From the NCBI GenBank assembly GCA_963575745.1, contig CAUYUJ010000270.1:310001-374000 (forward strand): a DNA stretch of 64,000 bases, read 5' to 3'. The position numbers were made by a program, and so were the translations under genes. Below, piece after piece: positions 21,601-57,844 of the stretch. Position 1 is the first letter of the stretch. Every line of letters starts with the position of its first letter. The notes under the pieces were generated by a model, which did not search any database, was not told the origin of the DNA, and worked only from the letters and a program-made list of their open reading frames with translations. Origin of the DNA: Prorocentrum cordatum. Taxonomy: Eukaryota.

Positions 21601-23515
21601 ATGGATCTTCCCCATGTTGCCGACGGCCTGGCGCGCGGGCCTCGGTTACCCAGAGCATCCAAACCACAGAAAAACCTGTAAAACGGAAGTCGTTTTGAGT
21701 TCTCGACAATAATATTGTGGATGTATATGTTGGTGGTCTGCTCCTACAATAATATTGTGGGGCCTACAATAATATTCTGCCATTGCAAATATCATGTGTC
21801 ACGATAACAAAGTCAGTGAAAAAAACGTGATTCGTGAAAAAAACGTGATTCGTGAAAACATCGTGTATTTGTATATATATGTATACATATATACATATAT
21901 ATATACATATGTTAACAAGTGTGTGTGTATATATATCAGAGTGAGGGGGCCGAACGGTCATTCACTGTCCCTGGGTGCGTGGCTGAAGTGGGATTCCGCG
22001 GTGCGGATTCGTGTTGTTGTTGTTGTTGTTGTTGTTGTTTGTTGTTGTTGTTGTTTGTTGTCGTCGTCCCACCCGCCACCCGCCCCGCGACCCACCGGCG
22101 ACCCACCCCGCGACCCACCCGCGACCCACCCGCGACCCACCCGCGACCCACCCGCGACCCACCCCGCGACCCACCCCGCGACCCCCGCGACCCACCCGCG
22201 ACCCACCCGCGACCCACCCGCCCCACCCCCCCACCCGCGACCCACCGCGACCCGACCCGCGACCCACCCCGCGACCTCACCCGCGACCCACCCGCGACCC
22301 ACCCGCGACCCACCCGCGACCCACCCGCGACCCACCCCGCGACCCACCCGCGACCCACCCGCGACCCAAACCACGTTCAAGGTACAAACCAACATTTTTC
22401 GGCGCCTGCGGCGGGCTTTTTTTGCATCTTTTGCATTCCTAGGTGGAGAGACCGCAGCCCACCCGCGACCACGTTCAGGGATTTTTCGGCGCCTGCGGCG
22501 GGCACATTCGTTCCTGGTGGAGAACCCGCGGCCCACCAGCGACCCAAACCACGTTCAGTGTACAAACCAAATTTTTCGGCGCCTGCGGCGGGCTGCTTTT
22601 GCAGGAGGACGAGGAGGAGGAGGAGGAGGAGGAGGAGGAGGAGGAGGAGGAGGAGGAGGAGGAGGGGGAGGACGGGGACGACGACGACGACGACGACGAC
22701 GACGACGACGACGACGGACGACGGGAGAGGAGGAGGACGACGAGGAGGATCATGACGACAATGGGAGGACGATGATGGAAGGACGAGGGGGGGAGAGGGA
22801 GGACGAGGAAGAAGAGGAGGAGGAGGAGGACGAGGTGGAGGAGGAGGACGACGATGACGATGAAGACGAGGACGAGGACGAGGAATAGGAGGAGGAGAAG
22901 GAGGAGGAAAAGGAGGAGGAGGAGGCGGAGGAGGAGGAGGAGGAGGAGGAGGAGGGGGAGAAGGAGAGCGCCATCGACAGGGAAGGTGGGGGCCACGAGG
23001 TCCGCCGGCTTGACGACGCCCGCGTCGCCCGCGCCCGCCCCCTCACTCTTATCCGCAATTGCGGGGTATATATATATATGTGTGTATACGCATTTACCAG
23101 CACCTCCATAACAATCTTACGCGCCGAAGACGCCGCGCGCGTCGGCGACATTCACTCACGGCCGAAGGCCCTAGACAAGGGTCGAGGATAGGATTACAGG
23201 GGGAACCGTGAGCCAACATGCGCGTCTGCATCCCCCCCCTCATTATCGACCCATGTTTGTTGAAGGCCCGAGAACCCCTCGCAAGTGTTTGGTTTCTAGC
23301 TGCGTTTCCTCAGTCTTCCGCGCCTCGCCACGCACTGGCCGTATTCCAATTGATGAACGGACTGACTTTTACGATTGTATTAGGTCGCGCGCGGCCCGCT
23401 CCTGACAGTCGCCCCATCTCCCCCGTGGCCGATGACGATTCGTCGAACGATCGCTCTTGGGGCGACGGCGACAGGCAACTGACGCCCGTCGACAGTTATG
23501 AGGAAGGGAGTTGCA

Positions 23516-23585
23516 CGCGTTAATGCGTGCACGCATTAACGCGAAGAGGGTCCTCTTCGCGTTAATGCGTGCACGCATTAACGCG
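23516..23585. repeat. 70-bp compound palindrome
   Basis: Two copies of the perfect 28-bp palindrome CGCGTTAATGCGTGCACGCATTAACGCG separated by AAGAGG-GT-CCTCTT. Confidence 0.95.
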
Positions 23586-54046: not shown

Positions 54047-56083
54047 TCAGAACATGTCGCGCAGGAACTCCTCGCCTCGCGCTCTCACGGTCGCTTCCGT
54101 GATCTCTCCATGCACAGCCTGCTGACCATGTCCGCTGCCATCTCCCGCATCTGCTCCTCGGAGTAGTCGCCCGCTGTCCACTGGCGCACCTGGCTGCGCG
54201 GCTTGTGCACCTGGCGGATCGCCGCGGCCTTCTTCTTTTTCTTCTTCTTCTCGCCTGCCCTGTGCCACATGACAACCCAGGCTTTCCCCTTCACGGAGTC
54301 CTCCTCCGCCTGCAAGCTCGGGCTCCTGTCGGCCGCGGCAGGCTTCTCGTCGGCCGCGGCAGGCTCCCTGTCGGCCGCAGCCGGCCTCCGCTTGCTCGAG
54401 CCGCCCGCGGCGCCCTCCAGGTCGGACCCGTCGGGCGCGGGCCCCCTTGGCCTCGTCCTCGCCCCCCTCCTCGCCCCCCCCCTCGTCCGCTGCCGCCGGC
54501 CACTTCCGCGCTGCCGCTGGCCGCTTCTTCGCCCCGCCCTTCGGGTGAGCCTGCTGCGGCTTGGCTGCCCCCCCCCCGCCCCCCTGCTCCGCGGCCTGCA
54601 GGACGGCGCTCGCCACGAGCGTCTCGACCGCCTCACCGTCGACGGTGATCACGGCGAAGACCTTGGGGCCCTGGCGAAGACGGAACCGCTCTTCCTTGAG
54701 CCCGAGCCACGCCTCGGGGCAGTGCCGAGCCCTCACGAGTTCCATCGTGTTGTAGTCCACCCAGTCCTCGTCCTCCTTGAAGGTCGCCGTCTTCTCGGCC
54801 TGGTAGCTCGCACCCTTTTGCGCCTCGGCGGGAGGGGGGGGGGGGGGGGGGGGGGGGGGTGCGATGGGGGGCGCGGGGGGGGGGGGGGAGAGAGAGAGAG
54901 AGAGAGAGAGAGAGAGAGAGAGAGAGAGAGAGAGAGAGAGAGAGAGAGAGAGAGAGAGAGAGAGAGAGAGAGAGAGAGAGAGAGAGAGAGAGAGAGAGAG
55001 AGAGAGAGAGAGAGAGAGAGAGAGAGAGAGAGAGAGAGAGAGAGAGAGAGAGAGAGAGAGAGAGAGAGAGAGAGAGAGAGAGAGAGAGAGAGAGAGAGAG
55101 AGAGAGAGAGAGAGAGAGAGAGAGAGAGAGATGAGAGAGAGAGAGAGAGAGAGAGAGAGAGAGAGAGAGAGAGAGAGAGAGAGAGAGAGAGAGAGAGAGA
55201 GAGAGAGAGAGAGAGAGAGAGAGAGAGAGAGAGGAGAGAGAGAGAGAGAGAGAGAGAGAGAGAGAGAGAGAGAGAGAGAGAGAGAGAGAGAGAGAGAGAG
55301 AGAGAGAGAGAGAGAGAGAGAAAGAAAGAGAGAGAGAGAGAGATTGCGTTTTCATATCGAACTCTCTCTCTCTCTCTCTCTCTCTCTCTCGAACTTCGAA
55401 CTTCGAACTCTCTCTCTCTCTCTCTCTCTTTCTCTCCATACCTCCCTCTCTCTCATGTATGGTACAAAGCGAAACGCAAACGCCGCGCGGGCCTTCCTCG
55501 TGCTCGGCGGGCTGCTGGCCACGGTCTCCTGCGACTGGACGACGTGCACCCCCTCGTCGCCCTTGCGCTTCCGCGGGGGGCTCCTCGCGCCGTATAGGGC
55601 CAGGATCGCCGCGCCCTGGTCCGCTACGCTGGACGCGGCGCCGCCCGAGGCGGCCGACGCCGCCCCTGGGCTGCCGCGAAGCTTTGCTGAGCTCGGCGGC
55701 GTCGAGGCGGGCGAGTGCTGTCCGCCGCCCACGGCCCCCACCCCCCCGGCGTGGATCACCGTCTGCACCGCGGGAGGGAGGCGCTGCAATTCCTTGTTGC
55801 CGCTCCTCTTGTTGCACCACGACAGCGTCTCCACCCTCATCTTTGCGCACACCGAGGACGCGGAGTCCGCCTCCCCGAGAACCTCCTTCAGACCCTTCTG
55901 GAGGTCCTTCGCGGACAACCTCGCCGCCCGCCCATTCACGCTCGCCAGCATGTTCGCGTTCTTGCGCGCGATGTCCTCGTAGCTGCCCGCGCAGTGGAAT
56001 CCCAGGATCTCGCCCTGCCACTTGCGGATGGCCCCGTTCAAATCCTCCTGGGCGATCTCCACTTTCGCGCGCCCCGACGCCAT
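54047..56083 (-). pseudogene. Element 2 gene A counterpart (KRPAA protein)
   Basis: ATG at 56083; intron containing the (GA)n tract; RLRQGPKVFAVITVDGEAVET, KKRPAAA, RRPAAA, AAIRQVHKPRSQV. Confidence 0.6.
54889..55342. repeat. (GA)n microsatellite, about 450 bp
   Basis: Near-perfect GA array. Confidence 0.98.
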
Positions 56084-57844
56084 GCGAGCGGCCCCGCGCC
56101 GAGGTGGGGTGGGGGGGGGGGCGTTGCCGCGGCCTCTCGATGGCAGACTGCGGCGGCGATGGGAAGGTTGGATGCGCCGCCGTCGTCGCTCCTAGGAGGC
56201 GCGGCCCCCGCGTCCGCACGCTCGCCCCGCCCCATCCCCCCCGCGCAGGAGGCGCGGCCCCCTCGTTCTTCGCCCCCGTGGCAAGAAGTCAACTTCCGCC
56301 CCTGCGAGATCGACGCGACGCCCTGGGGGGGGGGCGACGCCCCCCGAACGCGCCAAGACCGCTCGAACATGCAGCATCTGGCTCGCCGCAGGAGGCGCGG
56401 CCTCCTCCGCGCGTGAACAAAATATCCCATTGCAAGGGAAATGCGCCTCCTCATGGGACAACATCGCGCCGCTGTCGTCATTAAGATGTACTCGTCGCTA
56501 CAGATTTAGCGATGGTCGTCGTCGCTAAATTGCAACGTCGACGCTAAATTTAAAGCCGACGACAAAATAAACAGATGCACTAAATAGGCACAGATGGATC
56601 AACATGGGAGCGACCCCATCGCAGGCAGGGCTCGCCCGGGGGGGGCGGCGGGAGGCGCGTGAACCCGGCCTGAAAAACGCACCCCCCCCCCCCCCCACCC
56701 ACCCACGGAGGGCCCCCCCGACAACCGGCGCGGGGGCGGCGGAAGATGCGCAAACCCGGCTCGAAAGAGGAGGCGGCGGAAGGTCTGCAAGCCCGGCTCG
56801 AAAAACGCCGCCCCGACTGACCTGCGGGAAGGCGTTCCGCGGGAGACAGAACGCCCCCCCGCGCAGTGCGACCGCCCCGCCCCCCGCGCCCCCTCTTCGC
56901 CCGACCGCTGTCATCCCCCGCCCGCGCCCCTGCCCCCCCCCCGCCCCTGCGCCCGCCCCGCCCCGCTCGCCGCGCCCCCGCCCCTCGTCGGCCGCAAAAA
57001 GCAAAGGGGAGGGAAAGGGAGGGATACCGTAGGGGGGGGCAGGGGGAGGGAGAGAGGGAGGGGGGGGCGGCGGCGCGACGCTGACAGCATGATCCATCAG
57101 AGGGCACGCGGTGCAAGCCCACGGCGCCATCGGCCGCTTCGGCCAGATCTTAGGGCGCCTCTGCAACGCTGGGCCACGTGCCCCGAACCTCACGAAACAA
57201 TTCGCCTACCCCTCCTGCTGCGCGCTCGCGCCTGACCCACGGCGACGTTGCAGGGGGCAGCGAGGCCGCGCAATCACGCGCTACATGACGAACAAAGCCT
57301 CGCGGTGGATGAACACGCTACAACTGAGACTAGGTGGAGAGAAGCAGCACAAGATATCACATATGAGACCGAGCACGGGGCCCAAGTCAATGCGCGCCCC
57401 CTTCCGTCGTTTTTTTTGGCGCTCTTCGCGCCCCGCATCCCCCCCCCCCCCCCGCCCCCCCCATCCTCCTCCTTCACTGCCAACTCCCTACCCATCGAAG
57501 TACAATCGCCCCATCGTCGGCGTCGTTTTTCGCGACGCGTTTCGCAGCGGCCGCCCGTGGCCTGGCCGCCCCTGCCATCGCAGAGAGCACTGCAGCGCGA
57601 ACGACTACCCACTGACCCTCTGAACGCTTTTTTTTTTTTGGGGGGGGGATTTTGCACTCCACGAACGAACTAAGTAACGCGCTCCAAGCACAAAAACCTG
57701 CAATGCCTCGCGCACTCTGCGAAAGTGGCGAGCCCGCCGCGCCGCCGTTGCCCGGGCTGCAGCGCCGGGCGCCTTTCGCTTCCAGGAAACCGAATCAGCA
57801 GGGCCGCGCGTCTTCCACGCGTGCGTCGGGGGGCAGATTTGCTT

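Follow-up and report, generated by a model that had tools for sequence, protein, structure and literature searches.

The window analysed here, a 64,000-nucleotide stretch of Prorocentrum cordatum DNA (assembly GCA_963575745.1, contig CAUYUJ010000270.1, positions 310,001 to 374,000, forward strand), carries two large transposons with terminal inverted repeats (TIRs), named element 1 and element 2. It is probable that their transposase and an upstream partner gene, gene C, form the conserved two-gene core of a large transposon family with a RAG1-like predicted transposase fold, and that genes A and B of element 1 are lineage-specific extras. The family is best read as a new lineage of the CACTA/Transib-like (CMCT) group. 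A first-pass annotation of the window had proposed that both elements share a co-oriented cassette of four genes, A-B-C-transposase, as the core of an undescribed system. The two transposons were found where it had placed them and every peptide string that it quoted was present at the expected place and strand; the fixed four-gene core was not borne out.

The transposase family and its predicted fold

The spliced transposase of element 1 is intact, with 581 amino acids (aa), and gave a single continuous match to the family profile (E-value, E, 5e-203). All of the D, D, C(2)C, H(3)H and E motifs are preserved in it, and it carries the stretches WGDAAPY, RGDWSW, CCFKC, PKHHVFVH and GDESEIG. When the open reading frames (ORFs) of the window were searched with the family profile, those of element 1 matched at E 1e-133 and 7e-50 and those of element 2 at E 3e-59 and 1e-16. 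By these matches both transposases are members of one family, as the first-pass annotation had held, and the motifs that it listed as common to both are correct. A direct tblastx comparison of the two elements returned one weak 107-aa match in the transposase together with scattered short matches.

An environmental contig scan with a 10-sequence transposase alignment as the query yielded 80 loci, which are designated below by contig numbers beginning with L. The element 2 transposase ORF matched 53 of these 80 contigs (best E 2e-30) and carries CWKC and PKAH. In a tree of the C-terminal half, it was placed on a long branch (1.55) outside the well-supported clade of element 1. Its reading frame is not the same in the first piece as in the second, and nothing in it corresponds to profile positions 188-217, the site of the CxCGCxGR motif. 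Because of the frame change and the missing zinc-type motif, this copy is probably decayed.

The family is large. A word-indexed search of public protein data with the large ORF of element 1 found 13 relatives, and an exhaustive search retrieved 2378 representative clusters at the E<=1e-3 threshold, of which 161 also reached E<=1e-30. Complete family transposases are about 565-631 aa long, and relatives were absent from the viral and prokaryotic collections searched. A word search of sequencing runs returned one DNA run with 0.60 of the words and one metagenome with 0.10, with no RNA run among the matches listed. Spliced-leader-like 15-mers were observed in two of the transposase contigs (L014:4118, + strand; L009:59, - strand), indicating that some of the transposase relatives, at least, come from dinoflagellates.

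No named family was recovered by sequence. When 41 full-length members were compared with Pfam, no family matched more than one member at E<=1 and no transposase family was hit; a sequence search of the PDB with the transposase gave no match of note and none to RAG1. In the alignments D160, D269, C289, H349 and K513 are invariant and C292, H515 and E537 nearly so, the C(2)C and H(3-4)H pairs are C289/C292 and H515/H519, and a CxCGCxGR(H/C)T motif is conserved between the two D residues. The AlphaFold model of the transposase (pLDDT confidence score 86.6) was most similar to the RAG1 core (Z-score 14.9 over 426 residues), followed by amphioxus RAG1-like (13.6), the P element (10.0) and Transib (9.7). 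Foldseek likewise returned RAG1 (E 3e-6, TM-score 0.44), with retroviral integrase cores also among the fold matches. The nearest named clusters in an Atlas embedding search were Plavaka (0.90) and RAG1 (0.87), which are leads only. The transposase is by prediction a DDE enzyme of about 580-630 aa, and its modelled fold is nearest to the RAG1 core.

Gene C and its linkage to the transposase

Gene C of element 1 is, by profile search, a member of a real protein family. Its ORF matched contig L005 (tblastn against the contigs, E 6e-8). An external profile, built from outside sequences only (database relatives P0165-P0171), matched it at E 1e-19, and a profile built only from clade 2, the other transposase clade, matched it at E 1e-8.

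Among the 80 loci, the external profile detected C in 9 at E<=0.01 without iteration and in 13 after iteration, in every case upstream of the transposase and on the same strand. With the loci grouped by how much upstream sequence they offer, C was present in 12/16 of those with at least 2 kb, in 12/20 with at least 1.5 kb and in 13/37 with at least 0.8 kb. Strand and order are constant, the distance to the transposase is typically 0.6-1.5 kb, and the aligned matches have a common GW-TE...SRPHE...G-KQY core. The C-positive loci lie in both transposase clades, that of element 1 and that on the other side of the deepest split in the tree; they include L046, the neighbour of element 2 in that tree, as well as L059 and L037, which are further relatives of the element 2 transposase. 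In these environmental contigs, a profile search for upstream linkage of the kind that the first-pass annotation had proposed for dinoflagellate genomes came out in favour of C, always co-oriented, and for A gave L018 alone among the 80 loci. In L054 and L059, C and the transposase are the only genes between inverted clusters of short repeats, which lie 4.5-4.8 kb apart at both ends, and the two contigs look like near-complete elements. An examination of the long contigs L005, L075, L003, L078, L025, L031 and L018 recovered complete ends in none of them.

In element 2, the first-pass annotation had claimed a weak counterpart of C. This ORF (C2) was the best non-self match of the C profile in the window, in second place among 1110 ORFs with three profile versions, and aligned at the GW-TE motif; the E values of 0.09-0.5 are marginal and fall short of statistical support, and the clade-2 C profile gave no match to it at E<5. 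On balance, C2 is probably a decayed C.

The model of C had a pLDDT of 72, with confident parts confined to a core at about residues 60-200 and a C-terminal helical bundle, and showed helices and hairpins without a beta-propeller. Of the structure predictions advised by the first-pass annotation, that of the transposase gave the RAG1-like modelled fold; that of C gave generic helical-bundle matches only (Z<=11.4, residues 250-367), together with weak winged-helix rows (Foldseek E 0.26-0.8). An Atlas search with C gave no usable match. Complex prediction for the C of L037 with its own transposase scored 0.02 and was counted neither for nor against a partnership.

In contig L005 (1-11821) a complete C gene is found 6 kb upstream, and a further C-like fragment (5139-5462) immediately precedes the transposase. 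Between these and beyond them lie several ORFs with no Pfam domain and two RING-finger-like ORFs (9406-10494 and 11032-11499) that stay below the Pfam cut-offs. L005 may be a cargo-rich or nested relative.

Genes A and B

Gene A of element 1 (A1) likewise belongs, as judged from its first exon, to a real protein family. This exon matched L018, upstream of the transposase of that contig (tblastn, E 4.5e-8), and an external A profile made from outside sequences only (database relatives P0162-P0164) matched it at E 3e-20. The remainder of the gene is documented by motifs. The last exon presents, in order, a GFVVATH...ELEVPN strand motif, a basic KRPSAA/KRPAA stretch, an acidic run and a C-terminal module. 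The NPFINFRG motif of the preceding segment recurs as NPFIHFRG, on the common pattern NPFI(N/H)FRGQ and again with an acidic run, at 27917-27940 (+), after the gene B ORF, and the outside A proteins have NPF(I/L/V)xF at the matching place. Profile support for these motifs was weak (E 0.9-8 for the NPFINFRG copies, E 2-3 for the last exon).

Recurrence of A was limited to L018, which is 1/80 loci and 1/16 of those with at least 2 kb upstream. There C (1-756), A (1285-2769) and the transposase (3533-5653) lie on a single strand, so that A does recur next to a related transposase, in the order C-A-transposase and not A-B-C-transposase. For gene B of element 1 no homologue was found; two stretches near the end of its ORF resemble ubiquitin-interaction motifs. 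The B position of element 2 (B2) is occupied by a glutamine/alanine-rich ORF unrelated to B1, in agreement with the first-pass view that the two correspond by position only. From these distributions, gene A is taken to be a recurrent extra of one sub-lineage, comprising element 1 and L018, and gene B to be private to element 1. The accessory genes had been proposed as conserved core components; this stands for C, present in 12 of 16 contigs and in both clades, and not for A or B. A and B of element 1 were also considered as a nested insertion, and this candidate was rejected: the internal inverted pairs were simple-repeat matches only.

The match claimed between A1 and gene A of element 2 (A2) was not confirmed. 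BLASTP gave no significant alignment (best E 1.3-1.4), and the A profiles found no match in element 2. What remains is a common order of features in A1, A2 and the outside A proteins, in which a first acidic run lies about 36 residues ahead of a hydrophobic strand motif, with KRPAA and a second acidic run coming after that. As the first-pass annotation had noted, KRPAA is present in both A genes; it occurs exactly twice in the six frames of the window, once per claimed gene A, with an average of 0.24 in shuffled sequence. The motif is short, and KRPAA-like basic motifs were also found in unrelated upstream ORFs of L026 and L031. We take such basic motifs to resemble nuclear localisation signals. 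A2 is a possible homologue of gene A.

In a domain screen of the 92 sense-strand ORFs of at least 70 aa from both elements (Pfam, E<=0.001), no match was obtained except one of low complexity below its cut-off. The accessory ORFs of element 2 had no match among the contig ORFs at E<0.05, and its transposase is the only part of element 2 that these comparisons still recognise with confidence.

Ends, flanks and state of the two elements

The positions of all features of both elements are collected in the table below. The 28-nt terminus of element 1 occurs exactly twice in the window, at 21937 (+) and 35383 (-), with 0 occurrences expected by chance. Its TIRs align over 21937-23067 versus 35383-34102 and differ mainly in the copy number of internal arrays. 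The left TIR holds a 27-copy array of the 11-bp unit CCCACCCGCGA at 22068-22368, and the ends further contain a (TGT)n run, a longer subterminal repeat present three to four times and a long purine-rich AGG array. The termini read CAGAG...CTCTG and are of the 5'-CA...TG-3' type. The element is flanked by a (TA)n run compatible with a target duplication of 2, 4, 6 or 8 bp and not of 3 or 5 bp; the 3-bp flanks (TAT versus ATA) differ, as do the 5-bp flanks. Because its 1.1-1.3 kb ends are near-identical and its transposase is intact, element 1 is judged to be young, and it looks autonomous.

The ends of element 2 are shorter and imperfect. Their 22-nt core occurs twice in the window (0 expected), the termini read CATG...CATG when the ends are placed one base inside the first-pass coordinates, and comparison of the two end sets confirmed that they are unrelated to each other. 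Element 2 interrupts an array whose repeated units measure about 45-50 bp (GGCGGCGGAAGG...AACCCGGCTCGA) and which continues on both sides; the flanking stretches 45486-45584 and 56712-56810 are 81% identical over 99 bp. All three of its sense frames are open over long stretches, and a long (CT)n tract and frames rich in glutamine and alanine lie within it. Element 2 is read as an old and diverged relative that is probably dead.

Features of elements 1 and 2 (positions in the window; strand where assigned)
Feature	Position	Strand	Remarks
Element 1	21937-35383	+	Real TIR transposon; inverted ends 1.1-1.3 kb
Element 1, left TIR	21937-23067		About 1131 bp; begins CAGAGTG
Element 1, gene A, first exon	23897-24406 (start located at 23900)	+	N-terminal domain of the A family
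Element 1, gene A, NPFINFRG motif ahead of an acidic run	24586-24609	+	Common to the A family
Element 1, gene A, last exon	25433-26131	+	"Gene A" of the first-pass annotation
Element 1, "gene B" ORF	26985-27464	+	Acidic/proline-rich
Element 1, gene C, first exon	29009-29434	+	Conserved core of the C family
Element 1, gene C, further exons (probable)	29531-29638, 29728-30114, 30331-30501	+	
Element 1, transposase exons	31304-31497, 31713-32796, 32983-33450	+	Introns GT...AG and GC...AG
Element 1, right TIR	34102-35383		About 1282 bp
Element 2	45643-56607	-	Real TIR transposon; inverted ends about 58 bp, imperfect
Element 2, transposase-side inverted end	45643-45700		CCATGTAGATCC..., then TAGCGACGA-type subterminal motifs to about 45760
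Element 2, transposase pieces	47709-47227, 47144-46869, 46652-45921	-	Family-profile matches
Element 2, candidate gene C remnant (KWVTVAQL)	49074-48886	-	About 1 kb upstream of the transposase
Element 2, "gene A2" of the first-pass annotation (KVFAVITVDGEAVETLV, KKRPAA)	54050-54880	-	Motif-level resemblance only
Element 2, far inverted end	56550-56607		

Alternative readings

That the conserved core comprises all four genes, with element 2 as a diverged and complete second example, is unlikely in our judgement. The layouts of the two elements are alike, co-oriented with the transposase last, the A and C genes of element 1 each belong to a real family with members next to related transposases, C2 is the best non-self match of the C profile and lies about 1 kb upstream of the transposase on the right strand, and A1 and A2 have the same order of features, with KRPAA at these two places only in the window. 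Against this stand the A1/A2 comparison, with BLASTP E>1 and silent A profiles, the E values of 0.09-0.5 for C2 and its failure with the clade-2 profile, the accessory ORFs of element 2 without contig matches, the unrelated B1 and B2, and the single occurrence of A in 16 contigs with 2 kb or more upstream, in another gene order. Orders differ between element 1 and L018, and L054 and L059 carry C and the transposase only. Another alternative is that element 2 shares nothing with element 1 except the transposase, its long frames being a by-product of G+C content and simple repeats and the resemblance of A2 and C2 being due to chance or composition. This we consider possible, though the less probable view of element 2. 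It would account for a G+C content of 65-70% with three open sense frames, for the (CT)n tract and the glutamine/alanine-rich frames, for the lack of Pfam matches in the sense ORFs and of homologues of the accessory ORFs, and for KRPAA-like motifs in unrelated ORFs of L026 and L031. It fits less well with the rank of C2, second of 1110 for three C profiles at the expected place and strand, and with the presence of C in the transposase relatives L046, L059 and L037, from which a decayed C would be expected in element 2.

A different objection concerns the independence of the two genes. C and the transposase could be one transcription unit, resolved by alternative splicing as in the TnpA/TnpD products of maize En/Spm, or one fused protein. 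Their constant strand and order at typically 0.6-1.5 kb would suit this, and many of the contigs are just 2-5 kb long and may be transcript-like. The C ORFs, however, end in stop codons, the transposases begin with a conserved N-terminal region of their own, and in the databases the C proteins (240-333 aa) are separate from the transposase proteins (about 565-631 aa). A single transcription unit or a fused protein is unlikely.

Several points also weigh against our preferred reading, that of C and the transposase as the two-gene core of a RAG1-fold family. C was not found in four of the 16 contigs that reach 2 kb or more upstream (L003, L026, L061 and L079), and some loci are near-duplicates (L054/L071, L005/L006, L037/L076), so that the locus counts overstate independence. 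The iterated C profile could have drifted, although the aligned matches keep the GW-TE/SRPHE core, and since the fold search with C returned generic helical matches, no function is drawn from its fold. Gene A lies 7 kb upstream of the transposase in element 1, beyond the reach of most contigs, and its rarity is accordingly a weak negative. As to the family's placement, the Pfam models for Transposase_21, Plavaka and RAG1 were silent in the 41 members at E<=1, and the top rank of RAG1 may reflect the lack of any solved CACTA-type structure. The decay of element 2 is read from ORF pieces, and a short intron could account for its frame change. Target duplications give little help: the (TA)n surroundings of element 1 leave the length ambiguous, and inspection of the element 2 flanks gave no clear duplication, the best being GGC versus GGA.

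Comparison with known transposons

The first-pass assignment of both elements to the CACTA-like kind of TIR transposon, with related transposases, is supported. Maize En/Spm encodes a transposase and an accessory protein (TnpD and TnpA) and has CA...TG termini and ends rich in short subterminal repeats. The present family resembles it in its two proteins, its long ends packed with subterminal repeats and its CA...TG termini, and differs in that C is, by its ORFs, a separate upstream gene and not an alternative splice form. It also departs from EnSpm/CACTA proper: the termini are CAGAG and C/CATG instead of CACTA, a 3-bp duplication does not fit element 1, and the EnSpm/CACTA and Plavaka Pfam models had 0 matches among the window ORFs.

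With Transib, ProtoRAG and RAG1-RAG2 the family has in common the best structural match of the transposase model and an adjacent partner gene. It differs in having no sequence match to RAG1 or Transib and in that a 5-bp duplication does not fit element 1; compared with RAG2, the C model has no beta-propeller, and C is co-oriented and upstream of the transposase. In the spacing of its C(2)C and H(3-4)H pairs the family may resemble the zinc site of RAG1, and the first seven bases of element 1 have one mismatch to the recombination-signal heptamer.

The CMCT group comprises EnSpm/CACTA, Mirage, Chapaev, Transib, Plavaka, ESTA, Lanisha and RAG1 (Kojima 2025, PMC12730594). The same paper defines the group by a DDE triad on an RNase H-like fold, 5'-CA...TG-3' termini and a target duplication of 2-5 bp, and describes ESTA as recognised through HHpred-type or fold similarity to RAG1 (PMC12730594). 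The family agrees with the group in the DDE triad on a predicted RNase H-like fold, in the motifs and in the 5'-CA...TG-3' termini, and among the duplication lengths that its flanks would allow, element 1 could have a 2-bp AT/TA duplication of the ESTA or PlavakaA kind. It differs by an additional motif, CxCGCxGR(H/C)T, that is conserved between the first and the second D, and by a partner gene, C, without a known domain. Because there is no sequence-level match to a named CMCT family, the placement rests on motifs, predicted fold and the embedding lead.

The closest architectural precedent is the giant Plavaka of red algae, elements of 17-19 kb in the EnSpm superfamily that encode a transposase and the accessory genes PAG1-3 (bioRxiv 10.1101/2025.02.11.637652). 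The PAG genes show long-term conservation, and yet they move from one element family to another (bioRxiv 10.1101/2025.02.11.637652). The likeness lies in an EnSpm-superfamily-type transposase with three accessory genes in a TIR element of 13-19 kb. The PAG2 methylase (PF01555) and SET (PF00856) domains are absent from the 92 sense ORFs at E<=0.001, and only one accessory gene is broadly conserved in the present family. Since multi-gene CACTA-type elements have been described in red algae, the architecture alone is not new. The first-pass view of an undescribed system is tempered by giant Plavaka as a partial precedent. In the titles and abstracts of the literature searched, no description of this transposase family in dinoflagellates was found.

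Other features of the window

The window is eukaryotic, with a G+C content of 52-71% across 2-kb bins, and contains the remains of many mobile elements. A spliced-leader relic with 1 mismatch (0 expected by chance) is located at 59988-60008 (-), and a second at about 5596 (-), where it immediately precedes a fatty-acid hydroxylase gene located at 4062-5525 (-). Both resemble the dinoflagellate spliced-leader motif; they suggest retroposed genes that were formerly trans-spliced, and a dinoflagellate as the host. A run of long ORFs at 10876-15377 (-) includes a PIF1-like helicase domain (12921-13766, Pfam E 2e-10); the ORFs adjoining this domain had no Pfam match, and the run is possibly a Helitron-like element. 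Long ORFs at 18142-20458 (+), 36323-37207 (+) and 40731-44110 (-) resemble mobile-element proteins by eye. They show an HxxR/H motif of the tyrosine-recombinase type and stretches similar to reverse transcriptase or RNase H; at E<=0.001 Pfam matched none of them, and these labels are unconfirmed.

Proposed mechanism and implications

In the mechanism that we propose, the transposase would cut at the 5'-CA...TG-3' termini and reinsert the element with a short target duplication. Protein C, in the manner of TnpA, would bind the subterminal repeat arrays and either pair the ends or recruit the transposase; this role is suggested because of the position and conservation of C and the repeat-rich ends.

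Dinoflagellates have very large genomes that are rich in repeats, the majority of them without a classification. The present analysis adds one specific element that looks autonomous, together with a profile of a family, thousands strong, that Pfam-based annotation would miss. The stable unit of this family would be the transposase and one partner gene of unknown fold. A more far-reaching reading, which we put forward tentatively and hold to be rather improbable, is that the C-transposase pair marks an unnamed branch, at superfamily level, of RAG1/Transib/CACTA-like transposons, abundant in dinoflagellates and other aquatic protists, whose transposase needs a partner of new fold. If this were true, gene A would be a nuclear-targeted helper added by some lineages, and alongside RAG1-RAG2 and TnpD-TnpA the family would be a third example, independent of both, of a transposase that works with a partner protein. 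The likeness of the predicted fold to the RAG1 core adds a protist branch to the question of how RAG1-like transposases and their partners evolved.

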